Below are positions 20,441 to 38,557 of a DNA stretch of 41,008 bases, one piece after another. A program made the position numbers and the translations under genes. Positions within the stretch are counted from its first letter, which is position 1. Each line of letters begins with the position of its first letter. The stretch covers positions 1 through 41,008 of the forward strand of contig JANMWE010000222.1 of NCBI GenBank assembly GCA_031393795.1, given 5' to 3'. Origin of the DNA: Gemmatimonadota bacterium (lineage in GTDB: Bacteria; Gemmatimonadota; Gemmatimonadetes; Gemmatimonadales; GWC2-71-9). The notes under the pieces are model-generated. The model saw only the letters and a program-made list of their open reading frames with translations. It ran no database searches and had not been told where the DNA came from.

Positions 20441-20510
20441 CGCTATCTACCTCCCAAACGGTTCAGGCGCGCGGCGAATGGCCGCAGAATGCGCCGAGTG
20501 AGACGGGCCA

Positions 20511-20585
20511 TGGGCGAAGAGGGATTCGAACCCCCGACATCCTGCGTGTAAGGCAGGCGCTCTGGACCAGCTGAGCTATTCGCCC
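20511..20585 (-). tRNA. tRNA-Val (TAC)
   Basis: GGGCGAATAGCTCAGCTGGTCCAGAGCGCCTGCCTTACACGCAGGATGTCGGGGGTTCGAATCCCTCTTCGCCCA; anticodon loop CTTACAC; CCA not encoded. Confidence 0.97.
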
Positions 20586-20593
20586 CGAAGATC

Positions 20594-20782: not shown

Positions 20783-20790
20783 AGAATTGA

Positions 20791-20819
20791 AGGTTACACC
20801 CCCTGCGGTCCTTGGTCAA
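20791..20819 (-). promoter_or_regulatory. Putative sigma70 promoter for the small membrane protein gene and tRNA-Val
   Basis: TTGACC-17 bp-TAACCT; -10 box ends 8 nt before the ATG at 20782; no SD. Confidence 0.6.
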
Positions 20820-22611: not shown

Positions 22612-23082
22612 TCAGGCCGCGCCCACGGACTTGAGGGCGAGCCGCTCCTTGGACGACAAGAGCCGCCCGGCGTTGAGGATGACGACGGTCCGCTCACCTT
22701 CGCGCACGAGCAGGCCGCTGATGTATTCGGCGGCGAGGCCCCGCACCAGGGGCGGGGGCGCGGCGATGGCGCCACCGTCCACCCGGGCCACGTCGAGCAC
22801 CTGGTCGACCACGATGCCGACCCGCTGCCCTTCGATGTCCAGGACCATCATCCGCGTCTCCTCCGTCAAGTCGGCCTTGAGCGAGAGCCGCTTCCGCAGG
22901 TCGATGACGGGGACCGAGATCCCTTCGAAGGTCACGACCCCCTCGAGGTAGTCGGGGGATTTGGGGAGGGCGGCGGGCTGTTCGTAGCGCAGGATCCGCT
23001 CGACCTGGAATACGTTCAGGCCGAACTCCTGGCTTCCCACCCGGAAGCACACGATCTGGATCTCGTCGCCGGTGGTCGTCAC
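22612..23082 (-). CDS. cheW: Chemotaxis coupling protein CheW
   Basis: IVCFRVGSQEFGLNVFQVERI, LPKSPDYLEGV, VPVIDLRKRL, VGIVVDQV. GTG start 23082. Confidence 0.92.
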   Translation of the reverse strand: MTTTGDEIQIVCFRVGSQEFGLNVFQVERILRYEQPAALPKSPDYLEGVVTFEGISVPVIDLRKRLSLKADLTEETRMMVLDIEGQRVGIVVDQVLDVARVDGGAIAAPPPLVRGLAAEYISGLLVREGERTVVILNAGRLLSSKERLALKSVGAA

Positions 23083-23500
23083 GTGGAGGCTCCCGCGCCG
23101 GCGATGCGTTCGCCGAGGGCGTTGAGGTCGAGGATCGGGACGGTCCCGTCCTGCTGTCGCGCGATAGCCGCGGCGTAGGGGAGGCCCGGCAGACCGACCG
23201 CCGGCAGCACCTCCCCGCGTTGCACCACAAAAGCGTCGTCGACTTCGAGGCAGATCGGCCGGCCGGCCGCGCGGACCAGCACCGTGGCGGTGCCGCGGGT
23301 CTCGGGTGCGGGGCCTCCGGCGAGGAACGCGCCCAGATGGAGGAGCGGCACGAGGCGCCCGCGCGATTCGATCACGCCCCGCATCGACTCGAGGAGGCTC
23401 GGCGCCGGCAGCACGGCCCCGAGTTCTCCGACCTCGAGCACGTCGGCCGCGGGCAGGCCCAGTCGGCGGCCGTCGGCCTCGACCTCGAGCCAGGTGGCGA

Positions 23501-23504
<4 letters not shown>
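23079..23504 (-). CDS. cheW: Divergent CheW-like protein
   Basis: [41 protein letters not shown]. Confidence 0.78.
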
Positions 23505-24572
<1,068 letters not shown>

Positions 24573-24589
<17 letters not shown>

Positions 24590-25061
24590 CGGTCGCCAGG
24601 GTGCGGATCCAGAGGGATCCATCGTTGGCCTGCAGGCGGAGGGAGCGACCGGTCGTGCCGCCGGTGGCCTCCGCCGTGATCTTCACGCCTTGTTCCTGCA
24701 GCACCTGGCGCGTCGCCACGACATTCCGTTCTCCCATCTGGACCGCGCCCGACGGCGACAGGTTGCCGAACATCGATGCCCCGCCCACCAGGCGGGCGGT
24801 GATCCGAGTGCGGTCCGCCCCGAGCGCTTCCATCTTCTCGAGCAGGAGCGGCACCGCCGACTGCGGGAACTTGGCGGGGTTCTCGATGGAGCGGCTGAGG
24901 CTCTTGTTGGGGAGGAGGATGTGGGCCATCCCGGCGACCAGCGCGACGGGGTCGTGCAGGCAGATGGCCACGCAGCTCCCGAGCCCCAGGGTGACGAGTT
25001 CGGCGTCGCCCGCGGCGGTGTTGAGGTCCGCCACCTTGACCACGATCGAGCCCGGCTTCAC
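24573..25061 (-). CDS. cheD: Chemoreceptor glutamine deamidase CheD
   Basis: TLGLGSCVA (Cys), GMAHILLP (His), GGASMF, GERNV, GGTTGR. GTG start 25061. Confidence 0.95.
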
Positions 25062-25885
25062 CCGGGCTTCCGGAAGATACGTTCGCGCACGTCGACCACT
25101 TCCAGCCGCTCGCGCGCGACACCCATCAGGGTCTCGACCTTGCCGAGCAGCAGGAAGCCGCCGGGCGCGAGCGCCGAGGCGAAATGCTCGAAGAGCCGTT
25201 CCTGCCCGTCCCGGTCGAAATAGATCACCACGTTGCGACACACGACGAGATCATAGGGTGGGGTCGGTGGCGGTTCGCGCAGGAGGTCCTGACGGCGCAC
25301 GTCGACCATTCGCTTGAGGATCGGGACCACTTCCCGGTCGTCGGTGCCGACGGGCCGGAAATACTTGGCGGTGAGTGCCGGCGGCATCTCCATGAACGCG
25401 GAGGTCGGGTACCGACCGGTGCGGGCACGGGCCATCACCAGCTCATCGATGTCGGTGGCGACGATGCGAGCCCGGTTGGCCCAGGCGGGCTTCCCCATCC
25501 GTTCGGCCTCTTCCGCCAGGATCAGTGCGAGCGTGTACGGCTCTTCGCCGGAGGAACAGCCCGCGCTCCAGACCCGCACCGCCCCTTCGCGCGCCGTCAG
25601 CAGACCGGGCAGGACCAGGGTGCGCAGGCGCTCCCAGGTCTCCGGGTTCCGGTAGAGCCGCGTGACGTTGATGGTCAGCGTGTCCTTCAACTTTTCGAGC
25701 TCGGCGGGATCCTGCCGCAGCAGATCGCTGTACGCGCCGTAGCTCTCGGCACCGCGGGCCCGCATCCGCACCGCGATCCGGCGGCGGAGGACCTTCTCCT
25801 TGTAGTCGGCGAGCTGCATCCCCGCCGCCCGGGCGATCTCGCCGGTGAGGCGCGCGAAGCCCTCGGGATCGCCGGTGAGCATCAT
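25058..25885 (-). CDS. cheR: Chemotaxis methyltransferase CheR
   Basis: LTINVT, WSAGCSSGEEPYTLA, ATDID, CRNVVIYFD, LLGKVE. Start at 25885 or 25882. Confidence 0.95.
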   Translation of the reverse strand: MMLTGDPEGFARLTGEIARAAGMQLADYKEKVLRRRIAVRMRARGAESYGAYSDLLRQDPAELEKLKDTLTINVTRLYRNPETWERLRTLVLPGLLTAREGAVRVWSAGCSSGEEPYTLALILAEEAERMGKPAWANRARIVATDIDELVMARARTGRYPTSAFMEMPPALTAKYFRPVGTDDREVVPILKRMVDVRRQDLLREPPPTPPYDLVVCRNVVIYFDRDGQERLFEHFASALAPGGFLLLGKVETLMGVARERLEVVDVRERIFRKPG

Positions 25886-27504
25886 GCCCCCGCGGTCTCC
25901 AGCGCCTCGAGATTGGTGCGCGCCAGCTGGTGGCCGGGGTTGAGCGCCAGCACGCGCTTCCAATGCTCGCGCGCCTGCGCGGTGTCGCGCTGGCGGAACG
26001 CGATGTTGCCGAGCTTGAAGAAGAGGTCGTCGCCCAGGTCGGGCGCCAGCTTCGCGGCGCGCTGGTACGCCTCGGCCGCTTCCTCGTACTTCCCGCCGCG
26101 ATAGAGCAGGTCGCCCAGGTTCTTCGAGAGCTGCGGCAAGGCGGGATCGTCGCGGAGGGCCTCGCGCACGACGGTCTCGCTCCGGTCGAGGTCACCCATC
26201 AACTCGAGCAGGACGCCGAAATTGTTCCGGAGCGCCGGATGGGCGGGATACTTCTCCACCCCTTCCTCGGCGGTACGCAGCGCGTTCTCCAGGTCGCTGT
26301 CGAGCGCCTGCCCCAGGCTCATCGCCCAGAACCAGACGGCGGGGGGCTGCTTCTGCCCGTGCAGCTCGCGCGCCCGCTGCAACCGGCCGACCGCCACGTG
26401 CGCGTCCCCCTTCTTGAGCGCCGCGATGGCCCATCCGGTCATCAACCGGGGATCCTCGCGCGACCGGCTCACCGCCTCACCATAGCACGCCTCGGCGTCG
26501 GCGATGCGCCCCATCTGCTCCATCCCGAACGCCAGGTTGGCGAGGACCGCCGGTCGGGGGCCGCCCCGTTCGCCGGCCAGCTTGAGCGACTCGACCGCAT
26601 CCGCCCACTTGGCCTGCTTGAGGGAGATGAGCCCGATGAAGAAGGGGGCGCTCGCCTCGGAGGGGCGGAGGTCGGCCACGCGGCGGAACTCGCGCTGGGC
26701 CTCGTCGAGCATGCCGGTCTTGAAGAAGGCGATGCCGAGGTTCCGGTGCTCCTCGATGCGGGCCGCATTGACCTTGGGTTCGGCCGACACAGCGGAGCTT
26801 CCCGCCCGGTGCGCGAACCCGGCGGTGATAAGGCCGTAGAGCGACTTGCCGACCTCGAACTCGACCAGCCCGGAATCCTCGACCAGCTGGTGGATGTCGC
26901 GCTTGCCGTCGAGGAGCGGGACGATCCGTTCCTGGTCGGCGGAGAGCTGGACCCCCGACTCGGCGAGGTGCTTCTGGTCGACGGTGAAGATCAGGTCGAA
27001 GCTCGGGATCTTCTTTTCAATGAGGCTCCACTCGTCGACCCGCCGCGCCCCTTCCAGGAGGAGCGACTCGGGGTTGATCCGGACCAGGAAGTCCTGGCGC
27101 TCCGGCTTGACGCCCGCCTCGAAATTGAACGTCCCGCTGGTCCAGGTGAAGAGGAAGTAGACCGCCTCCTCGATCTGGACCGACATGTACTCCTCGAGCT
27201 GCGGCCGCTTGATGGCCCCGATGTTCACGAGGATCTCGCCGAGCTTCTGCTCGCGAAACTCCTCCTGCATCGCGATGGCCTGCTCGAGCTGGGCCTCGGT
27301 GATCTTGCTGTTCTTGACGAGGATGTCGCCCAGTCGATCGCGCCGGTTGACGATGGAGGCGTAGCAGATCCGTCCCTCGTCGAAGTAGATGTACCCGAAG
27401 TTCTGCTTGTCGGCCACGGCCAGGCAGCCCGTCTTCCGCCCCAGCGCCAGCAGCTGGAGGACGTCCGGGAGGGACGCTTCCTTGAGACTCCCCTTGATGG
27501 CCAC
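25882..27504 (-). CDS. DUF4388 (PATAN-like)-MshEN-TPR protein
   Basis: GSLKEASLPDVLQLL..RKTGCL, FTWTSGTFNF, LLLEGARRVDEW (DUF4388); tandem RLGDILV...Q / KLGEILV...Q motifs; about 8 C-terminal TPRs. Confidence 0.88.
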   Translation of the reverse strand: MAIKGSLKEASLPDVLQLLALGRKTGCLAVADKQNFGYIYFDEGRICYASIVNRRDRLGDILVKNSKITEAQLEQAIAMQEEFREQKLGEILVNIGAIKRPQLEEYMSVQIEEAVYFLFTWTSGTFNFEAGVKPERQDFLVRINPESLLLEGARRVDEWSLIEKKIPSFDLIFTVDQKHLAESGVQLSADQERIVPLLDGKRDIHQLVEDSGLVEFEVGKSLYGLITAGFAHRAGSSAVSAEPKVNAARIEEHRNLGIAFFKTGMLDEAQREFRRVADLRPSEASAPFFIGLISLKQAKWADAVESLKLAGERGGPRPAVLANLAFGMEQMGRIADAEACYGEAVSRSREDPRLMTGWAIAALKKGDAHVAVGRLQRARELHGQKQPPAVWFWAMSLGQALDSDLENALRTAEEGVEKYPAHPALRNNFGVLLELMGDLDRSETVVREALRDDPALPQLSKNLGDLLYRGGKYEEAAEAYQRAAKLAPDLGDDLFFKLGNIAFRQRDTAQAREHWKRVLALNPGHQLARTNLEALETAGA

Positions 27505-29489
27505 TAGCGGAGATCCTCCATCAGGCGGTCCGCGAGGTCGGGCCAGTCCCAGACCATCTTCTCGGCGCTCTTCACGCCACCCGACGTGGTGACCACGATC
27601 CCGCTCGAGCGGCGGGTGGCCCCGCTCTTCCGCTCCGCGCCGGACATCGGCCCTTCCAGCACCTCGCGCGCGAGCCCCGCGCTCGGCGCCACGTTCTGGG
27701 CCTCGGACGCGCCGAGGAGCCGCTGCACCAGTCCGAGCACCGCGCGGAGCGACTCCGCCGGCCGGCCGGCCAGATAGGCGGCGAGCTCGGGGTCGCTGGT
27801 GCCGAGGCGTTCGTGCAAGGCGCGCTCGACGACGCCGAGGCGAAGCTCCCGTTCGGGGGCCCCGAGCGAGACGACGAGACCTCCCTCGAGCCGGCTCCGG
27901 AGCCGCTCCTCGAGGCCGGTCAGGTCGCGTACCGGAACGGCGCTCGAGAAGACCAGCTGTCGCGCCTGCCCCAGGAGCTGGTCGAAGAGCCAGAAGAGCT
28001 CCTCCTGGGTGCGGTCCTTCCCCTGCAGGAGGTGGATGTCATCGATGCAGAGGGCCGTGACCCGGCGGTAGCGCGCGCGCCAGACCGCCACGCGGTCCCG
28101 CTCGATCGCCTCGATCAGTTCCTGGGTGAAGTCCTGCGCGCCGAGGCACGCGACCACCGTCCCTTCGTGCCTGGCCAGCTGGTTGGCGATGGCCTGGAGC
28201 AGATGGGTCTTGCCGAGCCCGCTCGCCGCGACGATCACGAAGGGGTTGTACTTGGTGGCGGGCTCCTCGACCACCGAGTGCGCTGCCCGAACCGCGATCC
28301 GGTTGGACGGTCCCTCGACGAACTGTTCCAACCGGAAGATGGGCGACGGCCCCGGCGGCGGGTTGGAACCGGCGCGCGCCCGCTCGCTCAGCGCGATGGC
28401 GCCGGCGAGGTCATCGGGGTCGCGGAAGGCAGCGCTGCCCGCGAGCTGCGGCTCCAACTCGGCCACCTCGGCCTCGAGTGCGCGCAGGCGGGTCACATCG
28501 GCCTCGTACTTCTGGATGGCGGCAAGGGGATCGCCGGGCGATTCCTGCGCGAGCAGGGCGGAGAGACGGGCGGTGCGGAACCCCTCGCCTTCCCAGCGCA
28601 TGATCGCTTCACCCACGCGGGTGCGCCACGCCTCGACCTGCGCATTCACCGTGGTGGTGATGTCGCTCAGGAAGGAGTCGAACTCCCCCGGGGCCGGGAT
28701 GGCAGGTTCGGGGGTGCTGACAGGCGGGCCGTTCGCAGGCGAGACGCCTACGCTCCCGGCGCTCGGTGCGGGGCCGCCGCCGAGGACCTCGCGGGCGGTG
28801 TCGGGATCGATCGGGGTGTCGCTCACCGACTGCCAGGCGATGAGGCGATTGAGCCCGCCGATCAGCTCGCGGACGTTCCCGTCGATGAGCGTGGCCACGA
28901 CCTCGAGCACCCCCGCGGGGATCTGCTGGTTCCGCTCCTCGGCCTGGCGCCTGAGGATGGCGATGCGGGTCTCGAGGTCGGGAGGGCTGATGTCGATGAC
29001 CAGGCCGCCGGCGAACCGCTGGATGAGCCGCTCGTCGAGCGCCTCGATCTCGCTGGGAGGCCGGTCGCTCGACATCACGATCTGGCGGCCCGCGGTGGTC
29101 ATCTGGTCCACCAGGCGCAGGAGCTCCGCCTGCACCTCCCGCCGGTGCGTGAGGAACTGCACGTCATCGAGGAGCAGGAGCCCGGTCTCGGCGTAGCGTC
29201 GACGATAGGCATCCCCCTGGCCCGCGCCGATCGCGGCGTGGAAGGCCTCGACGAAATCGTCGCAGGTGATGTAGTCCACCGTGAGCGAGGGGTCGATCCC
29301 GCGCGCGAAATGCCCCACCGCCATCAGGAGGTGGGTCTTGCCGAGGCCGGGCCCACCGTAAACGAAGAGCGGGTTGTACGCCGACCCCGGCGACTCCGCC
29401 ACCGCCTTCGCCGCGGTGACGGCGAGACGGTTGGTGGTGCCGACGACATAGGCGTCGAACCGGAATCGAGGGTTGAGCTGGTCGGTCAT
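27504..29489 (-). CDS. DnaA-like protein with two tandem AAA+ domains, lacking DnaA domains I and IV
   Basis: Start [12 protein letters not shown] (ATG 29489, overlapping the mglA stop), 661 aa. Domain 1: [46 protein letters not shown]. Domain 2: [46 protein letters not shown]. Confidence 0.88.
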
Positions 29490-30091
29490 CCGCTCACGGG
29501 CTGGTTCTGCGCGAGCCGTTTCAGGACCTGTTCGGAGATCCCCTTGAGGGTCTCGAACACGCCGCTCCCGTGCAACGCGTCCCCGCCGAAACTCTTCACG
29601 CCCCGGAAATTGAGCGCGTCGTCGAGCTCGGCCGGGCTCAGGATCAGCTCGGGCGGGAGGTCCTGTTTGTTGTACTGGAACACCGTCGGGAAAGCGCGGA
29701 CATCGATGCCCTGCTCCAATAGGTTCACCTGGAGGTTCTGCAGGCTCTCGAGGTTGTCCTCGAGCCGGCGCGCCTGGCTGTCGGCCACGAAGACCACCCC
29801 ATCGGCGCCCTGCAGCACCAGCTTCCGCGTGGCGTTGTAGTAGACCTGGCCGGGGACGGTATAGAGCTGGAACCGGGTGCTGAACCCCGAGATCGTCCCG
29901 AGCTCCAGCGGCAGGAAGTCGAAGAAGAGGGTCCGATCGGTCTGGGTCGCGAGCGACACCATCCGGCCGCGCCGTGTGTCCGGCACACGCCCGTAGATGT
30001 AGTGCAAGTTGGTCGTCTTCCCGGACCGGCCTGGTCCGTAGTAGACGATCTTGCACGTGATCTCACGGGTCGTGAAGTTGACCAGGGACAT
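29486..30091 (-). CDS. mglA: Small Ras-like GTPase MglA
   Basis: [58 protein letters not shown]; very close to Myxococcus MglA motifs. Confidence 0.96.
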
Positions 30092-30095: not shown

Positions 30096-30557
30096 TCAGC
30101 TCCCGAAAAGCGTACGGAGACTCGCGTTGAGCTCTCGTTCGAAGTCCACCGCCAACACCGGCTGGGGGGCGGGGGCCTCGGGCGCGGCGGCCGCGAGGTC
30201 CTTCACGAGCTGCTCGAAGAACAACTGCACCAGCCCGAGCGAGGTGTCCGGACCGAAGACCACCAACCCTACCCAGCGACCCCGCGGGGTCTCGAAGCTC
30301 GCCAGCAGATGGGCCTGCTGCGCGCCCTGATGCACCACGGTGGTGAATTGCTCCCACTTGAGCGTCCGGGCCAGCTCACCGGTCGAGGCCACGATGCCGG
30401 CACCGAGGGCGGCGACCCCCATCACGTCCACCGCACGCAGGAACCCGTGCTGGGCCACCACCTGCCCCGCCGTGGTCATCAACAGGCAGAGCCGGGCCTG
30501 GCTCTCGGCCAGGAAGGTCTCCATCGGCGCCGCCACCCAGGGTTCGACGGCGCGCAT
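30096..30557 (-). CDS. mglB: MglB (Roadblock/LC7 GAP of MglA)
   Basis: [53 protein letters not shown]-terminal helix; directly upstream of mglA. Confidence 0.85.
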
Positions 30558-30910
30558 CAGCCAAGGATCTCCAACGCACGGAGCATCTCGATCCGGGCGA
30601 GCCCGGCGTTGACGGTGCGCTCGGCCACGGCCACGAGGATGAGCTCCTCGCCGTGCGGTGCCGCCAGCAGTGTCCCGCCGGAGGCTGTGAGATGGACGAA
30701 CCGCGGCACCCCCCGCCCGGCCCCTTCGACCGCGCGCCGGAGCCGGGACACCAGGCTCGCGGCCAATGCCGCCACGGCGCTCCCCTTCATTTCATCCATC
30801 AAGGCCTCGGCCACGACCACCCCATCGGCGGCCGAGACGATCATCGCACCCCGGACCCCGGGTACGTGGGTCACGAGCTCGAGGGCGCTCTCGAAGGGAC
30901 TCGTGCTCAC
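30557..30910 (-). CDS. Roadblock/LC7 domain protein (MglC-like)
   Basis: 117 aa, VPGVRGAMIVSAADGVVVAE, AALAASL, NAGLARIEM. Confidence 0.85.
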   Translation of the reverse strand: MSTSPFESALELVTHVPGVRGAMIVSAADGVVVAEALMDEMKGSAVAALAASLVSRLRRAVEGAGRGVPRFVHLTASGGTLLAAPHGEELILVAVAERTVNAGLARIEMLRALEILG

Positions 30911-31752
30911 CTGAGCGTCTCCAGCCAGGCGCGGGCGGCGCGGGCGGCCCGTTCGGCCCCGAACTGGAGCCGCCCCATCGGGACGCTCGAGTCACGGACC
31001 ACCAGGAGGAGTGCCTCCGAGGTGGCAGGCAGGAGCGCGGCGTTGCCACCGGGGGACTCGAGGACCACGCTCTCCCAGGCGCCGAGCCCTAGAAGCTTCG
31101 CCGTTCGGGCCGCTTCGCGCGAGACGCCGGCCAGGTGGGCGGCGACCACGTCGGCCACGTCGGTCCCCTCGAGCGACCGGAGACCCCCGCCGAGCCGGAG
31201 TCCCTGGGTGTCCACGAGCAGGAGTCCATTCTCGGCCCCTTCGAGCCCCGCGAAGATCGCGGCCCGCGCGGCGGCCTCGTCATCTCCCGCGGTCGGCGCG
31301 GGCGAGACGCCGGCCGGCGCCGAGAGGCGCGTGACCGGCGGAGCCTGATCGCCGAGCGCGGCGCGGACGCGGGCGGCGGCCTGCCGGAGGCGCGGGTCAT
31401 CCGGCGCCTCGGCGAGCGCCGCCTCGAGGTGCTGGAGCGCCTCGGCGGTCCGCCCCGCCTTGAAATAAAGGAAGCCGAGCCCTTTGTGCGCCCCCGCGTG
31501 CTGGGGATCGAGCCGGAGGGCCATGTCCCATTCATCGAAGGCCCGCTCGAAATCGGCGCGATCGGTGAGGATCTTGGCGTACAGGTCGTGCGCGTCAGGG
31601 AGGTGCGGATAGCGACCGAGCCCCTGCAGCGCGACCTTCTGCGCGGCCTCGAGCTGCCCGCGGCGGCGGAGCGTCTCCCCCAGCGGCAGGAAGACGAGGC
31701 TCGCCGGGTCGGCGGCCAGCTGGGCGGTGAGGACGCGGACGTCGTCGCTCAT
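30907..31752 (-). CDS. TPR-Roadblock/LC7 fusion protein
   Basis: Three N-terminal TPRs (ALRLDPQHAGAHKGLGFLYF), Pro/Ala linker, then GLLLVDTQGLRL...AAHLAGV...PMGRLQF Roadblock. Confidence 0.83.
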   Translation of the reverse strand: MSDDVRVLTAQLAADPASLVFLPLGETLRRRGQLEAAQKVALQGLGRYPHLPDAHDLYAKILTDRADFERAFDEWDMALRLDPQHAGAHKGLGFLYFKAGRTAEALQHLEAALAEAPDDPRLRQAAARVRAALGDQAPPVTRLSAPAGVSPAPTAGDDEAAARAAIFAGLEGAENGLLLVDTQGLRLGGGLRSLEGTDVADVVAAHLAGVSREAARTAKLLGLGAWESVVLESPGGNAALLPATSEALLLVVRDSSVPMGRLQFGAERAARAARAWLETLR

Positions 31753-32885
31753 CGCAGCGCCTTCATCGCTTCTTCCAGGGCCAGGAGCGCGGTGCGCGCC
31801 TGCTCGACCGCTTCCTCACGCGACTGCTCCTCGGGCGAGAGGTCGGAGATCCGGCTCCACTTCATCAATTGATCGGCCGCCTCGCGGAACCGACCGGCCG
31901 CCGCCAGGGCAAGCCCCAGGAAGCGCTGGCCCTCGGCGGACTGCGGATCGTACTGCAGCACCCGGCGGAATGCATCGGCCGCCTCGAGGGCGCGGCCCAG
32001 GCCGAGGAGCGAGCGGCCGAGCACGAGGTGCGCCATCGGCTCGAGCGGGTGGATGGCCATCACTTCCTGGGCCGCGAGCAGCGCGCCCTGCGCGTCCCCT
32101 TCGGCCAGGCGGTCCTCGGTGCGGGCGATGAGGATCGCGAGTTCGCGCCCCCCGGTCGCGACCGTCGGACGGGGGGGCTGCTCGAGCCCGACGATACCGG
32201 CGGCGGCGAGGCCGAAGAGGGTCTTGGCCACCTCGAATTCGGCCCGGCCGATGGCCTGGGCCACCTCGCGCACATCCCGATCCCCATCGATGACGGCGAG
32301 GATCGACCACTCGTCGGGATGGAGGTCGAGGGAACCACCATCGGTCATCGCCAGCCGCGGCACGATGCCCAGGTGCGGGATGCGGGTCTGGATCTGGGAC
32401 CATTCGTCGATGCGACGCGCCCCCTCCATCAGCACCGCTTCGACCGGGATCCGCACCTCGACCTCGGAGAACTTCTCGGGCGGGGCCCCTTCCTCGAAGG
32501 AGAAGTACCCTTCCGACCAGCTCATCAGCTCGAAGACCACGGCCTCGACCTGGGCCCGGACCTGGCGCTGGAGTTCCCGCTGGGTGACCGCGCCGATGGC
32601 GACGAGGATCTCGCCGAGCCGGCGTTTGTCGCCCCCTTTCTGCATATCGCGCGCGCGGTGGAGGTCCTCTTCGCGGACCTTCCCGGCCTGGAGCAGGACG
32701 CTCCCGAGCGGGTGCGGATTGGAGCGGATCTCGGCGAAGACCACTCCGCCCTGGTCGAACACCACCGTGCCGGCGTTCTGGCGCAGCTGCGAGGAAACGC
32801 GCAGGACCCCGGTCTTCCGGCTCAGGTCGAGGAGCTGGAAGACATCGTGGATGCCGAGTTCCTTGAGCGGTCCCTCGATCGCCAT
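31749..32885 (-). CDS. DUF4388 (PATAN-like)-MshEN-TPR protein
   Basis: GPLKELGIHDVFQLL..RKTGVL, SWSEGYFSF, VLMEGARRIDEW; PLGSVLL...Q / RLGEILV...Q motifs; three C-terminal TPRs; paralog of 25882..27504. Confidence 0.88.
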   Translation of the reverse strand: MAIEGPLKELGIHDVFQLLDLSRKTGVLRVSSQLRQNAGTVVFDQGGVVFAEIRSNPHPLGSVLLQAGKVREEDLHRARDMQKGGDKRRLGEILVAIGAVTQRELQRQVRAQVEAVVFELMSWSEGYFSFEEGAPPEKFSEVEVRIPVEAVLMEGARRIDEWSQIQTRIPHLGIVPRLAMTDGGSLDLHPDEWSILAVIDGDRDVREVAQAIGRAEFEVAKTLFGLAAAGIVGLEQPPRPTVATGGRELAILIARTEDRLAEGDAQGALLAAQEVMAIHPLEPMAHLVLGRSLLGLGRALEAADAFRRVLQYDPQSAEGQRFLGLALAAAGRFREAADQLMKWSRISDLSPEEQSREEAVEQARTALLALEEAMKALR

Positions 32886-32887
32886 CG

Positions 32888-35611
32888 CTAGCCCTCCCGC
32901 CCGGCGAAGATGTGGGCGAGATCCTTGGCCGAACGCGCGTTCTTCCGCGCGGCGGTGGCATAGTCAGTGGTGGGCGCGAGCTGCACGACCCGATCCCAGG
33001 CTTCCACGGCCTCGGCGTAGCGACGGTCGCCGTTCCGCGCGGCGCCGAGGTGGTACCACGCCTCCACCCGGTCGGGCTCGAACCGAAGCACCCGCGAAAA
33101 GGCCTCGGCGGCCTTGTCGGCACGCGCCTGGTCGAGCAGCGCGCGGCCAAGGAGCACCAGCGCGTCGAAGTCGTACGGATCCTGCTCGAGCAGCGGGATC
33201 AGCAGCTCGAGCGCCGTGGCGGACTGCCCGGTGCGTCGGTAGAGGTCGCCGAGCGCGAGCGTGGCCTGCGAGAAGGTCGGCAGGATGTCGAGTGCGCGCT
33301 CGTACGATCCACGGGCCTCCGCGTGGCGTCCCTCCTGCTCCTGCAGGTGGCCCAGCTCGTACCAGACCTGCGGGATCGCGGCGTCGAGTTCGAGCGCGGC
33401 CTGGTACGCCGCCATCGCGCCGCCGGTGTCGCCGAGCCGACTGCAGACGGCGGCCTGGAGCTGGAAGAGGTCGGGGCGGCCGGGCGCGCGCGCCTGCGCG
33501 GTGCGCACGTACTCGAGGGCGCCGAGCGCGTTGCCACCCGCCATCCGCGCCCGCGCCCCCGCGACCAGGGCGTCCACGTCGGTGGGGCGCATGGCGATCA
33601 GTTCTTCGGCCAGCGGGGCCGCCTCGGCGCCGCGATCGAGGGCCAGGAGCGCGCGCAGCTCGCCGAGCCGGGCCTCCGGATCGTCGGTGCGCACCAGCCG
33701 CGCCTCGCGGAAGCGCTCGAGCGCCTCGCCGTGGAACCCGCGCCGGGTGAAGACCTCGCCCTGGAGCACGGCCGCACGCACCGGATCGGCACCGCGCTGG
33801 ATGGCGCGATCGACCTCGCCGGCCGCGCGGTCGATGAACCCCTTGCTCAGCTGGTCGCGCGCCATCGCGAGGAGGTCGTCGCCCGGGAGCGCCGCCGAGA
33901 GCGCGCTCCCGGACCCCGACGTGCGCGCGGCCTCGGTCCCGGGCGCGGTGGGCTCAAGCTCGGTGAAGAGCTGGTCGAGCAGCCGCTGGTCGAAGTTGAA
34001 CTCCTCTCCGACCTCCTCGGCGTGGACGTCGGCCGAGATCTCCGGGGTGATCGAGAGGTTCGGGTCCTCGTACTGCAGGTCGATCGCCAGCGCGTACTTC
34101 TGGGGCACGTAGTACGGCTCGAGCTCGAGGGCGCGCTTGGTCTCGCGCAGGGCGCCGTCGAAGTCGCCGAGGTGGCTGAGAGTGAAGCTCAGGTTGTAGT
34201 GCGCCGACGCGAGCTTGTCGTCGGCCTCGACCGCGCGGGCGAAGGCGTTCTTGGCGTCGGGATATCGCTTGAGCTCCACCAGCACGAGCCCGATGCCGTT
34301 CCACGCCACCGCGTTCTGCGGATGGTCGGCCAGGACCTGGCGATACGCCTCGAGCGCCATCTGGAAGCGGCGCTGCTGGAAGAGGAGGAGCGCCAGGTTG
34401 AGCCGCGCGGCGGCCAGGTCCCGCTTGCCCCGGAGCGCCGTCTGGAACGCTTCCTGCGCCCCCTCGATGTCGTTGAGCTGGCTCCGGAGGACGCCGAGGT
34501 TGTTCCAGGCGAGGCCGTAGTGGGGATCGTTGGCGGTGGCGCGCGCGTAGCCTGCCGCGGCCTCGTCGCGTCGATTGGCCTGGTGGAGGCAGACCGCGCG
34601 CTCGTTCCAGAGCTTGGGGCTGTCGGGGAATTCCTGGACCAGGCCGTCGTAGAGCTCGAGGGCGGCGGCGATGTCGCGGCGGATGAGGTGCACCTCGGCC
34701 ATCGCCTGGAGGGTCAGGCGTCGGTCTTCGCCGCTGTCGAGCGCCAGGCGGTACTCGCGGAGCGCCTCGACGTAGTAGCCCTTCTGGCGGAAGGCGAGGC
34801 CGAGGTTGAAGTGCGCGAGCATCTCCCCTTCGGCCACCTGGGGGCGCATCGCCTCGAGGGTGGACCGGCGGCGGATGGCCTGGGAGCGGCGATCTTCGAC
34901 GGAGAGATTGGCCTGCGCGCGCCCGAGGGTCGGGTTGAGCGCGAGGGCGCGCTTGGTGGCGGCGCGCGCCTGCTCGTGCTGGCCCATGTCGCCGTGGACG
35001 AAGGCCAGCAGGTAGTGGGCGTCGGCGTTGTCGGGGTTGAGACGCACGGCGCGGGCGAGGCCCTCGAGGGCGGCGTCGTTGAGGCCGCGATTGTAGAGCG
35101 ATTCGCCGTAGTAGAACTGCGCGATGGAGCTCTCGGGATCCCGCTCCGCGGCGCGGCGGAACCATTCGCTCGCCTGGTCCATTCCCCCGCGGGCCTTCTC
35201 GGCCATGCCGAGCTGGATGAGCGCCGGGACATCGCCGGGGTGGCGGGAGAGGAGGGTCTCGAACTCGGCGATCGCATCGGTGTGGTTCCCGAGCGCGGCG
35301 AAGACGCGGCCCAGTTCCCAGCGGGCCGTGCGGTCATCGGGCTGGCGGCGGAGCGCTTCGCGGAGTTCGGCGACGCGGGTGTCGTAGTACCCGGTGTTCT
35401 GGTAGGCGATGGCCAGGTTGGCCTGGGCCACCTCCATCTTGGGGTCGAGTTCGAGGGCGCGCGTAAAGCCGGCGATCGCCTCCGGGACGAGCCCTTTCTG
35501 GTAATACAGAACGCCGAGGTTGTTGTGCGCCCCGGCGTCCGAAGGGTCGATCCGACGCGCGAACGAGCGGAGGACCGCAAGGTCGCGTTCCGACGGCGCG
35601 GGCCCGGTCAT
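32888..35611 (-). CDS. Large cytoplasmic TPR protein (907 aa, roughly 20 repeats)
   Basis: Repeated AHNNLGVLYYQKG / ALELDP / AWNNLG / AWYHLG units along the whole length; acidic central linker; no signal peptide. Confidence 0.9.
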   Translation of the reverse strand: MTGPAPSERDLAVLRSFARRIDPSDAGAHNNLGVLYYQKGLVPEAIAGFTRALELDPKMEVAQANLAIAYQNTGYYDTRVAELREALRRQPDDRTARWELGRVFAALGNHTDAIAEFETLLSRHPGDVPALIQLGMAEKARGGMDQASEWFRRAAERDPESSIAQFYYGESLYNRGLNDAALEGLARAVRLNPDNADAHYLLAFVHGDMGQHEQARAATKRALALNPTLGRAQANLSVEDRRSQAIRRRSTLEAMRPQVAEGEMLAHFNLGLAFRQKGYYVEALREYRLALDSGEDRRLTLQAMAEVHLIRRDIAAALELYDGLVQEFPDSPKLWNERAVCLHQANRRDEAAAGYARATANDPHYGLAWNNLGVLRSQLNDIEGAQEAFQTALRGKRDLAAARLNLALLLFQQRRFQMALEAYRQVLADHPQNAVAWNGIGLVLVELKRYPDAKNAFARAVEADDKLASAHYNLSFTLSHLGDFDGALRETKRALELEPYYVPQKYALAIDLQYEDPNLSITPEISADVHAEEVGEEFNFDQRLLDQLFTELEPTAPGTEAARTSGSGSALSAALPGDDLLAMARDQLSKGFIDRAAGEVDRAIQRGADPVRAAVLQGEVFTRRGFHGEALERFREARLVRTDDPEARLGELRALLALDRGAEAAPLAEELIAMRPTDVDALVAGARARMAGGNALGALEYVRTAQARAPGRPDLFQLQAAVCSRLGDTGGAMAAYQAALELDAAIPQVWYELGHLQEQEGRHAEARGSYERALDILPTFSQATLALGDLYRRTGQSATALELLIPLLEQDPYDFDALVLLGRALLDQARADKAAEAFSRVLRFEPDRVEAWYHLGAARNGDRRYAEAVEAWDRVVQLAPTTDYATAARKNARSAKDLAHIFAGREG

Positions 35612-35615
35612 CGGT

Positions 35616-36236
35616 TCAAGTCAGGCGGATGGCGTCGAAGATCGCCCGCAGCGACGCAAGATCGGGGAGGAGCAGGAAATGGCCCCGGATCTGGACGGGC
35701 GAGTCGAGGAAGTTGAACTCCGTCTCGACGCAGAAGACGTAGTCGCGGTCGTGCCCGAAATTGAGATACGCGGTGGTGAGCACCGCGCCCGCCTGGTCCA
35801 CCACGAGGCTCGGCACGGAGGGGAGGAGCATCATCCCCATGAAGTCGCTGAGCGCGTTCATGTAGGCGCTCGAGAGGATGTTGCCCGTCTCCTTGAGCCC
35901 CGATTCCTCCATTGGCCCGAATTCCTGGGTCTCGCCGGGCTTGCGCTTGAAGAGTATGTCGGAGAGGGTCTTGGCCGAGCTGAGCGGGAAGATCACGAGG
36001 GTGCGCCCCGTGAGATCGCCCAGCATATGCATCATCACGGCGGCGATCGGGTCGTCGGGCTGGCCCAGCAGCTCGGGGACCTCCTCGAGCCGCAGGATGT
36101 TGACCCGCGGCACCGAGATCATGATCCGGCTGTTGACCATCTGCCCGAGCGCGGTGGCCGCGTGGCCGGCGCCGATGTTGGCCACCTCACGCAAGGCGTC
36201 GAGCTGGAGGGCCTGCAGGTCGCGCACGTCGTCCAT
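35616..36236 (-). CDS. cheC: CheY-P phosphatase CheC
   Basis: Two E-x2-N active sites (DALREVANIGAG, SGLKETGNILSSAY), PSVP, GHFLLLPD. Confidence 0.95.
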   Translation of the reverse strand: MDDVRDLQALQLDALREVANIGAGHAATALGQMVNSRIMISVPRVNILRLEEVPELLGQPDDPIAAVMMHMLGDLTGRTLVIFPLSSAKTLSDILFKRKPGETQEFGPMEESGLKETGNILSSAYMNALSDFMGMMLLPSVPSLVVDQAGAVLTTAYLNFGHDRDYVFCVETEFNFLDSPVQIRGHFLLLPDLASLRAIFDAIRLT

Positions 36237-36245
36237 GGTGCTCCT

Positions 36246-38144
36246 CTACACGAGCGTGGCGGCGTCGAGGATCAACGCCGGTACGCCATCGCCCAGGATC
36301 GCGGCACCGGAAAAGAGCGGGAGCATCCCGCGCGGTGCCTCGAAAGGTTCGACCACGATCTCCTGCTGTCCCACCAGCGCATCGGCCAGGAGTGCGGCGC
36401 GCCGGTCCCCCACCTGCAGGATGATGCCGGGCCGCCGGAGCGGCGGCGGGGTGTCGCACTTCACCCCCAGGACCACCCGGAGGTCGAGGGTCGGGATGAC
36501 CTCGTCGCGCAGCACCATGGCGTCCGATCCCTGCAGCACGCCCGCCGACTTGGGCGAGACCTCGATCGTCTCGGCCACCGACCCGAGCGGGAGCGCGTAG
36601 CGCTCGTTGCCGACCCGGGCCAGGAGGACCCGCACCACCGCGAGGGTCATCGGCAGCCGCAGGACCCAGGTGGTGCCCTTCCCTTCGGTGGTCCGGATCT
36701 CGACCGCCCCGCCCAGCTGGCGCACTTTCGAGACCACCACGTCGATGCCGACCCCGCGTCCGGAGACGTCGGTGACCTGCTTGGCGGTGCTGAAGCCGGC
36801 GCGCGCGATGACCCGGAGCAGTGCGTCGTCGTCCAGCCGCTCGACGTCGTCCTCGACCAGCCCTTCGCGCTTGGCCTTGAGCAGGATCGCACCCCGGTCG
36901 AGCCCGCGGCCATCGTCGCTCACGCGGATCACGACACCCTGCCGCTCCTGCGCCGCCGCCAGATGGAGGCGCCCTTCGACCGGCTTCCCGGCCTTCTTGC
37001 GATCGGCCGCCGGTTCGATGCCGTGGTCGAGGGCGTTCCGGATCAGGTGCAGGATCGAGTCGCCGATCTCCTCAAGGATGACCCGGTCGAGCTCGATCCC
37101 TTCCCCTTCGACGTCGAACCGCACCTGCTTGCCGAGCTGCCGCGCGAGGTCGCGCACGAGGCGCGGGAAGCGGTCGAAGGTCTGCCACACCGGCGTCATC
37201 CGGGCGGCGATGATCTCGGACTGCATGTCGCCGGTGAGGCGACCGATGCGGGCGGCGAGGGCCTCGAGCTCCGGGTGTTCGCGCGCCACCAGTTCCTGCA
37301 GGCGGCCCTTCGCGACCATCAGCTCGCCGACCTGGTTCATCAGGGTGTCGAGCCGGCGCAGGTCGACCCGGATGTGCGATCCGCGGTCGGCGGCGACCCG
37401 GGCCCCCTTCGCGGTCGGCGCGGCGGCGGCGGTCGCCGGCGCCGACTCCCCGACCTGCACCAGCTCCACGTCTCCCGCGCCGCGGAGCGCCGACTCGATC
37501 TCGGCCGCATTCCGGGTGGTCGCCAGCCGGAAGGCGAACTGCCCGTCGAACCCCTCGGCCTCGAAGGTGTTGATCGGAGGCCGGACCCCGCTCACCGTGC
37601 CCAACGCCTCGGCCCGCTTGAGGGTCAGGAGCGCGCGGACCCCCGGCATGATGGTGCCCGACTTGAGCCGCACCAGCACGTGGAGCCCTTCGCCGGCCGG
37701 GGCCGCCGCCATGTCCGAGATCCGGTGCGCGGCGGTGATGCGCATCGCCTCGGTATCGCTGGCCCCGGAGGCCGCGCGGTCCAGCTCCTGGCCGACACGG
37801 CCCAATTCCAATTGGGCGTCCCGCCCCTTCCCCGCCTCTTCGACCCCGTCCCCGAGGGCATCGACCGTCCGGAAAAGGAGATCCAGGAGATCGGGGCCGG
37901 GGACCAGTTTGCCGGCCCGGAGGCCGTCCAGCAGGTTCTCGGCGCGGTGGGCGAGGGCCGCGAGATTCGCGTAGCCCATCGTGCCGGCCATGCCCTTCAG
38001 GGTGTGGATGGAGCGGAAAAGACCGGCGATGTGGCCCGCGGCGCCGGCCGGATCGCGCTCCCACTCCAGGAGGAGCTGGTTGCAGGTACCGAGGTGTTCG
38101 CGGCTCTCGGTGAGGAAGAGCTCGGTGTACTTGGCGACGTCCAT
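36246..38144 (-). CDS. cheA: Chemotaxis histidine kinase CheA
   Basis: Hpt FRSIHTLKG, P2 domain, RVDLRRLDTLMNQVGEL, HLIRNALDHGIE, DDGRG, GFST..VSGRGVGIDVV, C-terminal CheW domain. Confidence 0.98.
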   Translation of the reverse strand: MDVAKYTELFLTESREHLGTCNQLLLEWERDPAGAAGHIAGLFRSIHTLKGMAGTMGYANLAALAHRAENLLDGLRAGKLVPGPDLLDLLFRTVDALGDGVEEAGKGRDAQLELGRVGQELDRAASGASDTEAMRITAAHRISDMAAAPAGEGLHVLVRLKSGTIMPGVRALLTLKRAEALGTVSGVRPPINTFEAEGFDGQFAFRLATTRNAAEIESALRGAGDVELVQVGESAPATAAAAPTAKGARVAADRGSHIRVDLRRLDTLMNQVGELMVAKGRLQELVAREHPELEALAARIGRLTGDMQSEIIAARMTPVWQTFDRFPRLVRDLARQLGKQVRFDVEGEGIELDRVILEEIGDSILHLIRNALDHGIEPAADRKKAGKPVEGRLHLAAAQERQGVVIRVSDDGRGLDRGAILLKAKREGLVEDDVERLDDDALLRVIARAGFSTAKQVTDVSGRGVGIDVVVSKVRQLGGAVEIRTTEGKGTTWVLRLPMTLAVVRVLLARVGNERYALPLGSVAETIEVSPKSAGVLQGSDAMVLRDEVIPTLDLRVVLGVKCDTPPPLRRPGIILQVGDRRAALLADALVGQQEIVVEPFEAPRGMLPLFSGAAILGDGVPALILDAATLV

Positions 38145-38148
38145 CGGA

Positions 38149-38511
38149 TCAACCGAGGACGCGCTGCACCGCCTCGAGCACCCGGGAAGGCTGGAACGGC
38201 TTGACGACGAAATCCTTCGCGCCCGCCTGGATCGCCTCGACCACCAGGGCCTGCTGGCCCATCGCGCTGCACATCAGGATCTTGGCGTCGGGATCCTGCC
38301 GGCAGATCTCGCGGACCGCGTCGATACCGCCCATGTCCGGCATCACGATGTCCATCGTGACCAGATCCGGCTTGAGCTGGAAATACTTCTCGACCGCCTG
38401 ACGGCCCGTCTCGGCCTCGCCGACGACCTCGAATCCCGCCTGCTGCAGGATGTCGGAGATCATCGTTCGCATGAAGATGGCGTCGTCGCACACGAGCACG
38501 GTGTGGCTCAC
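38149..38511 (-). CDS. cheY: Single-domain response regulator CheY
   Basis: VLVCDDAIFMR, TMDIVMP, CSAMGQQ, FVVKPF; closely resembles Bacillus/Thermotoga CheY. GTG start 38511 with SD GGAGG. Confidence 0.93.
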   Translation of the reverse strand: MSHTVLVCDDAIFMRTMISDILQQAGFEVVGEAETGRQAVEKYFQLKPDLVTMDIVMPDMGGIDAVREICRQDPDAKILMCSAMGQQALVVEAIQAGAKDFVVKPFQPSRVLEAVQRVLG

Positions 38512-38557
38512 GGAATACCCTCCCGACCGATCGCTACTGGGTGATGTCCTTGGGGGA

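Follow-up and report, generated by a model that had tools for sequence, protein, structure and literature searches.

A DnaA-derived protein with two AAA+ modules encoded in a chemosensory and cell-polarity gene cluster of Gemmatimonadales

Domain III of DnaA has one established role, assembling in an ATP-dependent manner at the replication origin, and beyond that is known from the regulator Hda. In Myxococcus the MglA polarity circuit comprises a GTPase, a GAP, and receiver and TPR proteins, and the partners known for MglA in Myxococcus and Bdellovibrio are the MglB/RomY GAP, RomR-RomX, SgmX, FrzS and AglZ, together with a TPR partner in Bdellovibrio. To our knowledge, none of these partners is an AAA+ ATPase or a relative of DnaA; our literature search found no paper pairing a DnaA-like or AAA+ ATPase with MglA, and none on the double-AAA+ protein described here. 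This protein is encoded in the 41,008-nucleotide stretch of DNA that we analysed as a whole (the window), in the following cluster:

31749..38589, (-): upstream part of the cluster, encoding PATAN-TPR (31749-32885), a TPR protein of 907 aa (32888-35611), CheC (35616-36236), CheA (36246-38144) and a CheY-like receiver (38149-38589)
30096..31752, (-): three Roadblock/LC7 genes, MglB-like (30096-30557), Roadblock (30557-30910) and TPR-Roadblock (30907-31752)
29486..30091, (-): mglA paralog, 201 aa, with conserved P-loop, R53 and Q82 and conserved synteny; its stop overlaps the start of the double-AAA+ gene
27504..29489, (-): double-AAA+ DnaA-derived gene, 661 aa plus stop codon (translation, Pfam, homologs)
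25882..27504, (-): PATAN(DUF4388)-TPR gene, 540 aa, whose start overlaps the stop of the double-AAA+ gene (domain scan)
25915..26133, (-): last two TPR units of this PATAN-TPR protein, approximately residues 458-530 (ortholog comparison)
23079..25963, (-): downstream part of the cluster, encoding CheR (25058-25963), CheD (24573-25241), CheB (23501-24622) and CheW (23079-23504)

The double-AAA+ protein is translated from one open frame of 661 residues, whose ATG (29489-29487) overlaps the TGA stop of mglA (29488-29486) as an ATGA and whose TAG stop (27506-27504) has one base in common with the GTG start of the next gene (27504). Both overlaps had been claimed in a first-pass annotation, which knew the downstream neighbour as a DUF4388 gene, and both were confirmed, the neighbour proving to carry DUF4388 and TPR. 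The frame is also open further upstream, to a GTG at 30056 (an 850-aa ORF); the ATG is supported as the start by 32 homologs whose N-termini lie at most a few residues from its position. At least 120 full-length homologs are 59-95% identical to the protein, which is organized as follows:

28776..29489, (-): D1, a complete DnaA domain III (IIIa and lid), residues 1-238 (Pfam, BLAST/MAFFT)
28683..28775, (-): Pro-rich disordered linker, residues 239-269 (AlphaFold2 pLDDT <50)
28365..28682, (-): family-specific middle domain of three long helices, residues 270-375 (AlphaFold2, homolog alignment, profile)
27654..28337, (-): D2, a second complete DnaA domain III, residues 385-612 (Pfam, BLAST/MAFFT)
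27570..27653, (-): disordered Ser/Gly/Arg-rich spacer, residues 613-640 (pLDDT <50 for 617-643)
27507..27569, (-): C-terminal motif SxEKxVWxWPxxxDRLxE(E/D)xx-COOH, residues 641-661 (65 homologs)

PF00308 (Bac_DnaA) matched the protein twice (E 2.4e-97), and neither PF08299 (domain IV) nor PF11638 (domain I) was found in it by Pfam up to E = 1; the chain starts at the first residues of DnaA domain III (MTDQLNPRF...). TIGR00362 likewise matched in two stretches, at 473.9 bits against a cut-off of 343.9 (NCBIfam). The first-pass annotation had described two copies of domain III joined by a Pro-rich linker and a helical segment, no domains I, II or IV, and a short Trp-rich tail, and this layout was recovered throughout, with module limits within about 10 bases of its coordinates. 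It had also proposed locating a canonical dnaA elsewhere in the genome, and we found one on another contig, encoding a 474-aa protein with PF11638, PF00308 and PF08299, the last of these models detecting it at 2.3e-27. With this full-length dnaA in place, and domains I and IV absent from the double-AAA+ protein, we rejected the latter as the genome's initiator.

Both modules are recognizably of DnaA type. D1 is 43% identical to residues 124-362 of the DnaA of its own genome and D2 38% identical to the same protein (BLAST/MAFFT), to which the middle part and tail gave no match. D1 aligns without gaps to residues 109-343 of Bacillus subtilis DnaA, domain III of which (8bv3_A) was also its top Foldseek match (TMt 0.96, rmsd 1.2, 46% identity). 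It carries Walker A K51, Walker B D108/D109, sensor I D142, arginines R154/R158 and sensor II R207, and among 65 homologs K51 and D108 are each conserved in 65, R207 in 61, the sensor I Asp in 50 and R158 in 48. D2 has Walker A AASGLGKT (K427), Walker B D483/D484, arginines R529/R533 and sensor II R582, conserved at K427 in 58/65, D483 in 60/65, R533 in 58/65 and R582 in 53/65; its sensor I position is an alanine (A517), with A in 32 and D in 12 of the 65, and in the window's protein the first Gly of its Walker A is also Ala. In our tree D1 and D2 clustered together (SH-aLRT 97), separate from the phylum's canonical DnaA; D2 branched as the sister of D1, suggesting that a module was duplicated internally. 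The full-length AlphaFold2 model had a mean pLDDT of 88.3 and a pTM of 0.52, so it does not predict how D1, middle domain and D2 are placed relative to one another.

We also compared the protein with other families that share this ATPase type. An identity as Hda/HdaA was rejected on TIGR03420 (170.4 against a cut-off of 194.8), NF006571 (40.1 against 297) and NF051883 (36.8 against 300), and an identity as an IstB/DnaC helicase loader on NF038214 (95.1 against 200) and NF005931 (DnaC; 41.9 against 357).

Outside the AAA+ modules, the Pro-rich linker varies in length and sequence among homologs. The middle domain has conserved positions at F273, G303, L309, L335 and D357-P358 and was modelled with a pLDDT of 88.2 and a pTM of 0.72; it had no match in Pfam, the PDB or the Atlas. 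The tail, which matched no PDB chain, is conserved at E643 (58/65), K644 (60/65), W649 (63/65), P650 (58/65), R655 (53/65) and E658 (58/65), and is anchored to the C-terminus, with 59 of the 65 proteins ending exactly three residues past the E658 column.

A profile of the middle domain matched 354 of 401 genomes sampled from Gemmatimonadales, almost always with one copy each, and full-length conservation with intact frames extends to homologs of about 31% identity. The core shared throughout the family consists of D1, the middle domain and the C-terminal motif. D2 is full, lidless, degenerate or absent depending on the lineage, and short forms without it keep D1, middle domain and tail; judged from these sequences, D2 is dispensable and the core is constant. 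The gene is missing in some lineages that retain mglA and PATAN-TPR, and in lineages that retain canonical DnaA.

The surroundings of the gene are equally stable. The order CheY-CheA-CheC-TPR-PATAN-Roadblock-MglB-MglA-[double-AAA+ gene]-PATAN/TPR-CheR-CheD-CheB was conserved as a whole in nine inspected full-cluster loci, and the cluster is also present in three complete single-contig genomes of a sister family. Of the 97 genomes carrying a non-canonical match to DnaA, 90 have mglA immediately upstream of the gene, sharing its contig and strand, which bears out the association with mglA that had been proposed, and the gap between the two genes was at most 30 nt in 77 of these 90. Five of the seven exceptions belong to a single genus, and in the one examined from that genus a diverged MglA (42% identity) stands at that place; one further exception is a contig break. 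The gene's context is broader than the mglAB pair first named, as a che/PATAN/TPR cluster surrounds it. By sequence comparison, the double-AAA+ gene is thus best described as a fixed single-copy member of a chemosensory/cell-polarity cluster in Gemmatimonadales. The window's own genome (93% complete) had six matches to T2SSE-family (PilB/PilT-type) ATPases above cut-off and no match to flagellin, which makes it probable that the cluster controls the polarity of a surface apparatus, type IV pili for example.

Whether the protein works through MglA is a separate matter. A MAG labelled Candidatus Cloacimonetes bacterium 4572_55 has the gene after CheA-AAA_22-CheW-CheC-TPR-PATAN, with neither mglA nor mglB adjoining, and encodes four MglA homologs elsewhere, so MglA may not be the primary partner. 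A predicted complex of the double-AAA+ protein with MglA and GTP scored 0.48, the best of three controls scoring 0.00, on a calibration that is rough (own alignments, riding GTP). Of 80 solved complexes, 58 reached the mark set for such scores, as did 2 of 110 mismatched pairs; scores reaching the mark at 0.60 or below came from only 7 of those 80 and from both passing mismatches, and the tool rates the range of 0.48 as more often wrong than right unless the pairing is likely beforehand. The runs agreed in at least 43% of contacts, with a partner pLDDT of at least 79.

A second candidate contact is suggested by the gene downstream, whose PATAN-TPR product covaries with the double-AAA+ protein. 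In all four examined genomes in which mglA is followed by PATAN-TPR without the double-AAA+ gene, the PATAN-TPR protein (430, 430, 477 and approximately 436 aa) stops before its last two TPR units, and where a DnaA-like gene is the neighbour, all 11 orthologs measure 538-573 aa. The four genomes represent three genera of one family and may stem from as few as one or two events. TPR domains are known to grip C-terminal acidic peptides, as Hop/CHIP-type TPRs do with the C-terminal motif of Hsp70/Hsp90. By analogy only, the tail could dock onto TPR units: in 59 of 65 proteins its motif keeps a distance of three residues from the C-terminus, the motif ends in acidic residues, TPR proteins are encoded all around it, and genomes without the gene have a neighbour that lacks its two terminal TPR units. 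The likeness to Hsp70/Hsp90 does not extend to kinship in sequence, and the conserved part here is longer and Trp-rich (EKxVWxWP).

Our preferred reading, held with moderate confidence, is that the protein is a DnaA paralog rebuilt as a signalling or assembly ATPase, an ATP-driven subunit of the MglA/PATAN polarity module and no origin-binding initiator. The first-pass annotation had likewise proposed a repurposed initiator-type ATPase, a proposal supported by both modules being far closer to DnaA than to Hda. Upon ATP binding, the arginine fingers would let D1 and D2 pair head to tail in the manner of DnaA protomers, within or between chains, creating a nucleotide-timed platform, and the middle domain and C-terminal peptide would hold partners, putatively MglA and the two terminal TPR units of PATAN-TPR, the product of the next gene. 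A bolder version, which we regard as rather unlikely, makes this DnaA-derived AAA+ protein a new kind of partner for a Ras-like GTPase: the head-to-tail D1/D2 array would form a polar platform read by MglA-GTP, its peptide clamped by the TPR end of PATAN, so placing an ATPase timer on the GTPase switch under chemosensory control. In its boldest form the protein would also touch DnaA or ssDNA and couple polarity reversals to the replication cycle.

Replication itself may instead be the target, the protein either joining domain III of the resident DnaA in mixed head-to-tail assemblies or supplying an Hda-like arginine finger, such that initiation would be tuned by chemosensory or polarity state. 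The match to TIGR00362 above cut-off, the kept fingers R158 and R533 and the PDB matches, far stronger to DnaA (E 2.1e-63 for D1 and 3.5e-40 for D2) than to Hda chains (~4e-4), are compatible with such control. We nonetheless judge it improbable, as domains I and IV are absent, TIGR03420 stays under its cut-off, the neighbours are all signalling or polarity genes, the family forms a group separate from the canonical DnaA of its phylum and is missing from lineages that retain a canonical DnaA, and the consensus of 65 homologs, inspected by eye, has no conserved N-terminal beta-clamp-binding motif. The link between polarity and replication raised in the first-pass annotation is not supported, with no result in its favour. 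The same annotation had described the protein as devoid of a DNA-binding domain, which holds for domain IV only: of the residues given as ssDNA/base contacts of B. subtilis DnaA in PMC10721633 (I190, I193, R202, K222 and E228), D2 largely keeps the equivalents, as I459 (I in 40/65), I462, R471 (53/65), K491 (K in 30 and R in 7 of 65) and E497 (57/65). D2, and perhaps D1, could thus bind ssDNA or RNA in an ATP-dependent manner via this initiator-specific surface, tethering or timing the polarity module on the nucleoid. We give this little credence, because D1 has His (30/65) or Arg (9/65) at the key Ile190 position, the family persists in several lineages in which D2 is degenerate or absent, some contact residues may be retained for the fold or for protomer contacts, and a dsDNA anchor (domain IV) is lacking.

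By far the least probable account is that of a decaying, functionless dnaA duplicate, or an IstB/DnaC-like helper ATPase of a mobile element, that lies beside mglA by chance. Weaker matches to IstB_IS21 (PF01695, E 1.6e-17) and IS21 helper models, and the altered sensor I and Walker A of D2, are what it can draw on. Conservation contradicts it, in the intact frames of distant full-length homologs and in the single copy at a fixed place in a conserved operon; against it stand also an IstB score far under the NCBIfam cut-off, and the lack of any transposase-family match among the window genes scanned against Pfam.

Under the preferred reading of a rebuilt signalling ATPase, an initiator fold appears to have been put to use in signalling: the DnaA fold is here duplicated, without origin recognition, and joined to a private domain and a putative C-terminal docking motif, within the che/MglA operon of one order. 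If true, this would be an initiator-clade AAA+ module reused outside replication, and an ATPase added to the MglA polarity circuit. Automated pipelines label these homologs 'chromosomal replication initiator protein DnaA' (as seen in source names, and with TIGR00362 above cut-off), a name that is very likely wrong for them and that can mislead origin prediction and dnaA copy counts in Gemmatimonadota genomes. The presence of the cluster in complete single-contig genomes of a sister family suggests that cultivable relatives may allow genetics.

Set beside the systems already described, the protein resembles DnaA in its two complete domain III modules with Walker A and B, box VII Arg and sensor II Arg, and differs in having two such modules per chain, no domains I, II or IV, a private middle domain and C-terminal motif, a tree group of its own, and a gene placed in a che/mglA operon with canonical dnaA elsewhere. 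Like Hda it is a domain III paralog without domain IV that keeps the arginine finger, but it has two modules in 661 aa and its PDB matches favour DnaA (1e-40 to 1e-63 versus ~4e-4). Type II tandem AAA+ proteins (p97/Cdc48, NSF, Rix7) also carry two AAA+ modules per polypeptide and rank after the DnaA entries in Foldseek; in contrast to p97/NSF, whose whole-chain TM is ~0.25-0.28 with an rmsd of ~25, the modules here match the initiator (DnaA) clade best and are separated by ~145 residues of linker and helical domain instead of being directly stacked. Compared with the known MglA partners, binding to MglA is only weakly predicted by modelling, whereas the genomic setting is alike, in one operon with MglA and Roadblock/MglB beside TPR, receiver-type (PATAN) and chemosensory genes. 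The Frz-MglAB circuit has the same pairing of a chemosensory system with MglAB, there as functional organisation.

The double-AAA+ gene occupies 27504-29489 on the minus strand and translates into 661 residues and a stop. Both of its junctions are overlaps: its ATG lies over the TGA of the preceding mglA as ATGA, and its stop TAG has one base in common with the GTG start of the next gene, in which Pfam scans place DUF4388 (the PATAN domain) ahead of TPR repeats. An 850-aa ORF from a GTG at 30056 would also be possible, since no stop interrupts the frame upstream of the ATG; the ATG start is backed by 32 homologs that begin within a few residues of it. Within the protein, two stretches match PF00308, the Pfam model for the ATPase domain of DnaA (E 2.4e-97), and no match up to E = 1 was obtained to either the C-terminal helix-turn-helix PF08299 or the N-terminal domain PF11638. 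The first module (D1, residues 1-238) is 43% identical and the second (D2, residues 385-612) 38% identical to domain III of the DnaA encoded in the same genome, and D1 and D2 share 33% identity. Neither the intervening 140 residues nor the final 50 have a match in that DnaA.

An AlphaFold2 full-length model built on 65 sequences (mean pLDDT 88.3) is confident for D1, for helices at residues 270-375 (the middle domain) and for D2, and renders residues 239-269, which are Pro-rich, and 617-643 as disordered. Since its pTM is only 0.52, the model does not predict how D1, the middle domain and D2 are placed relative to one another, and we make no claim on an internal D1-D2 interface. The top Foldseek matches were DnaA domain III structures (8bv3_A: TMt 0.96, rmsd 1.2, 46% identity). 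Together, the two PF00308 matches, the comparison with the genome's own DnaA, the model and the Foldseek result bear out, at its coordinates, the first-pass annotation, which had read DnaA domain III twice, with no domain IV, from the sequence. The middle domain had no match in Pfam or PDB sequence searches and no usable one in the ESM Atlas; folded alone, it gave no Foldseek match against the PDB at E <= 0.001. VIA-align placed it nearest to the spectrin-like repeats of EzrA (Z 6.4, rmsd 3.5 over 110 residues), a value below the level that the tool deems common for helical bundles, and we assign no fold.

A frameshifted or fused dnaA pseudogene was rejected, as the frame is intact and no internal stop occurs in any of the phylum-wide matches listed. 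The genome, which is 93% complete at 2.6 Mb in 319 contigs, also carries a canonical DnaA of 474 aa on contig C201, with PF11638, PF00308 and PF08299, so the double-AAA+ protein is not its initiator. The first-pass interpretation is supported in part. With two domain III modules, no match to domain I or IV and a complete initiator gene elsewhere, the proposal of a repurposed initiator-type ATPase holds; polymerisation and a role as MglA effector would be further steps, and nothing found in this analysis speaks for the accompanying suggestion of a link to replication control.

We then counted the ATPase motifs of both modules across 65 homologs (alignment A2).

ATPase motifs in D1 and D2, with counts among the 65 homologs of A2
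Walker A Lys: D1 K51, 65/65; D2 K427, 58/65
Walker B: D1 D108, 65/65, and D109, 63/65; D2 D483, 60/65, and D484, 54/65
Sensor I position: D1 D142, 50/65; D2 position 517, Ala 32/65 and Asp 12/65
Box VII arginines: D1 R154, 47/65, and R158, 48/65; D2 R529, 50/65, and R533, 58/65
Sensor II Arg: D1 R207, 61/65; D2 R582, 53/65

Given these counts, both modules look able to bind ATP. The available part of PMC10721633 gives R264 as the arginine finger of Bacillus subtilis DnaA; because D1 aligns with that protein without gaps, at an offset of 106, R158 and R533 are its counterparts. An invariant ATP site in D1 and a better-kept arginine finger in D2 would fit a head-to-tail pairing of the modules. 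Projecting the contacts to ssDNA and bases that the same part of that paper describes for B. subtilis DnaA onto D1 and D2 leaves a small chance of nucleic-acid binding by D2: the equivalents of Ile190, Ile193, Arg202, Lys222 and Glu228 are kept in D2 of the window's protein and of most homologs. At the Ile190 position D1 carries His or Arg.

Full-length relatives at 59-95% identity, named Gemmatimonadales or Gemmatimonadota, numbered at least 120 in a word-indexed search. Searching the 50% cluster representatives exhaustively yielded many more, with identities as low as about 31%; for the divergent ones among these (the homologs P0178, P0201, P0202 and others), the taxonomy rests on likeness to a single locus, L006 of genome G116. 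A non-canonical DnaA-like match is present in 97 of 151 genomes sampled across the phylum, among them nearly all from the window's family, the majority from a sister family and a scattering from the other families of the class. In the sampled genomes of other classes, only matches of canonical length were found. Of 401 genomes sampled from the order, 354 have a single match to a profile of the middle domain alone; nine of the 47 others were inspected. Genomes flagged as unpublished are G057 and G097 in the phylum-wide set and G250, G057, G405 and G177 in the order set, where all four have the middle-domain match; no claim depends on unpublished genomes alone. The cluster representatives also include five much longer proteins (P0183, 1990 aa; P0184, 1876 aa; P0218, 1427 aa; P0245, 1372 aa; P0248, 1368 aa); at one end, N- or C-terminal, each has a region resembling DnaA domain III with 38-41% identity.

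Not every family member has an intact second module. In two genomes (loci L007 and L008) we found a short form consisting of D1, the middle domain and the C-terminal tail, with D2 absent; the protein of L011 has D2 without its lid, and in that of L006 both Walker A and lid are gone from D2. All of these variants keep the C-terminal motif, so the constant core is D1, middle domain and tail. Eighty domain III rows went into a quick maximum-likelihood tree (LG+G4, SH-aLRT support only, assumed root); it took in 22 of the 65 homologs of A2, 15 canonical rows from the phylum (14 chosen phylum-wide matches and the genome's own) and 16 of the 78 loci read as canonical dnaA in the P0176 scan described below. 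The D2 rows all fall together (SH-aLRT 94), as do the Gemmatimonadota D1 rows (98), and the two groups join (97) apart from the phylum's canonical DnaA (88). If the root lies outside, D2 would have arisen by duplication within the family and the short forms would have lost it.

The gene sits in a chemosensory cluster whose members, named by Pfam scans, all lie on the minus strand and either overlap or stand a few bases apart.

Gene order of the cluster (minus strand, Pfam names)
Upstream part: DksA-type zinc finger, CheY-like receiver, CheA, CheC, 907-aa TPR protein, PATAN-TPR
Middle: TPR-Roadblock, Roadblock, Roadblock (MglB-like), MglA, double AAA+
Downstream part: PATAN-TPR, CheR, CheD, CheB, CheW

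The whole order was found in nine loci (L005, L007-L012, L014 and L111). Comparing the match coordinates of two phylum-wide searches by script, we found mglA directly upstream, on the same contig and strand, in 90 of the 97 genomes with a non-canonical match (the unpublished G057 among them); in 77 of the 90 the two matches are at most 30 nt apart, and three wide separations come from partial matches that begin only after D1. Of the seven misses, five are genomes of one genus, one is a contig break and one is L006, where no MglA match lies within 6 kb upstream. The one inspected locus of that genus, L005, has a diverged MglA (42% identity) at the same place. The MglAB company is constant within Gemmatimonadota, in line with the tie to mglA that the first-pass annotation had proposed. 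The exception lies outside the phylum. A search beyond it with the homolog P0176 gave one full-length relative outside Gemmatimonadota (L013) and one Gemmatimonadaceae locus (L014), along with 78 loci with short matches (about 650-1,065 bases), most of them uninspected, that we read as canonical dnaA; the spread outside the phylum rests on this single scan, in which sampling was sparse. L013, the sole relative placed outside, belongs to a MAG labelled Candidatus Cloacimonetes bacterium 4572_55 (GC 45%), is 66% identical to P0176, and in the tree the D1 of the Cloacimonetes-type pair falls outside the other D1 rows, at an open fork. Its gene follows CheA, an AAA_22 protein, CheW, CheC, a TPR protein and a PATAN protein, the extra AAA_22 ATPase gene lying at 719-1561 between CheA and CheW. 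Neither mglA nor mglB stands beside the gene, and four MglA homologs are found elsewhere in that genome. The most constant company is therefore che, TPR and PATAN.

At the cluster's upstream end, the DksA/TraR-type zinc-finger gene (40479-40862, minus strand) recurs at 72-79% identity near three reduced mglA-PATAN-TPR loci (L112, L114 and L115). Directly downstream of the cluster lies a partial division and cell-wall cluster, and between the two are two frames with no Pfam match at E <= 1e-4, the longer of which is strongly coding-like (third-position GC 0.91).

Features downstream of the chemosensory cluster
20463-21077, minus strand, 204-aa frame
18686-20440, minus strand, 584-aa frame
11172-18439, minus strand, partial division and cell-wall cluster (Pfam), comprising:
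17531-18439, minus strand, MraW methylase
15121-17733, minus strand, FtsI-type PBP with PASTA domain
13652-15325 and 12306-13655, minus strand, two Mur ligases
11172-12299, minus strand, MraY

The tail (residues 641-661) follows the motif SxEKxVWxWPxxxDRLxE(E/D)xx, in which W649 is kept in 63 of 65 homologs, K644 in 60, and E643, P650 and E658 in 58 each. In 59 of the 65 proteins the chain ends exactly three residues past the E658 column. A motif at a constant distance from the chain end would suit a peptide that is bound along with its carboxylate; TPR domains bind C-terminal peptides in this way, which offers an analogy. Four genomes (G036, G047, G114 and G179) have mglA followed directly by PATAN-TPR, with no DnaA-like gene and no middle-domain profile match. 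There, PATAN-TPR ends just before its last two TPR units (430, 430, 477 and about 436 aa); after a DnaA-like gene, of long or short form, 11 of 11 orthologs measure 538-573 aa and keep these units. This points to the last two TPR units of PATAN-TPR as the portion of the cluster for which the double-AAA+ protein is required. As the four genomes represent three genera of one family, the independent events may number one or two.

The adjacent MglA retains its P-loop, R53 and Q82, the roles of which we take to be those known from the Myxococcus literature. A second MglA paralog in the same genome (contig C72, 4374-4850, minus strand; frame of about 248 aa) is 64% identical over residues 1-161 and has similar-scoring matches across the order. 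A single complex was predicted, the double-AAA+ protein with MglA and GTP, each protein with its own alignment. It scored 0.48 (runs 0.47, 0.51 and 0.48), the best of three controls 0.00, with contact agreement between runs of at least 43% and partner pLDDT of at least 79. Of 80 solved complexes, 58 reach the same mark, as do 2 of 110 mismatched pairs; scores of 0.60 or under at that mark include 7 of the 80 solved complexes and both passing mismatches. The prediction thus gives a small push towards MglA as partner.

As to what the cluster may control, the genome has no match to flagellin (PF00669), at 93% completeness and with a full che cluster, and has six above-cut-off matches to the PilB/PilT/GspE ATPase family. 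In Synechocystis, PATAN-domain regulators are reported to target the motor of type IV pili (bioRxiv 10.1101/2021.06.11.447907), and in Myxococcus MglA activates type IV pili (PMC7668184). On these grounds, a chemosensory system steering pilus polarity is a reasonable guess, and we put it no higher.

Our literature search found no paper that connects a DnaA-like protein to MglA, to PATAN or to polarity in Gemmatimonadota; the available part of a survey of prokaryotic small GTPases (PMC4316618) mentions PATAN neighbours and no DnaA-like one, which its supplementary table S2 may list. Beyond the first-pass annotation, the analysis adds the core of D1, middle domain and tail, a motif anchored to the C-terminus, the setting among che, PATAN and TPR genes, the one locus with no mglAB beside it, and a neighbouring protein whose TPR end covaries with the gene. 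In one source the homologs bear the name 'chromosomal replication initiator protein (DnaA)'; another calls them 'DnaA/Hda family protein' or 'DnaA ATPase domain-containing protein'. The double-AAA+ protein passes the DnaA equivalog model TIGR00362 (473.9 against a cut-off of 343.9 bits) only because the scores of its two modules sum, and the name 'chromosomal replication initiator protein DnaA' is very likely wrong for these homologs. Its scores for Hda models lie below the curated cut-offs, and Hda ranks 48th at best in the Foldseek list. Among PDB chains, those of Hda match D2 at about 4e-4, whereas those of DnaA match at 3.5e-40.
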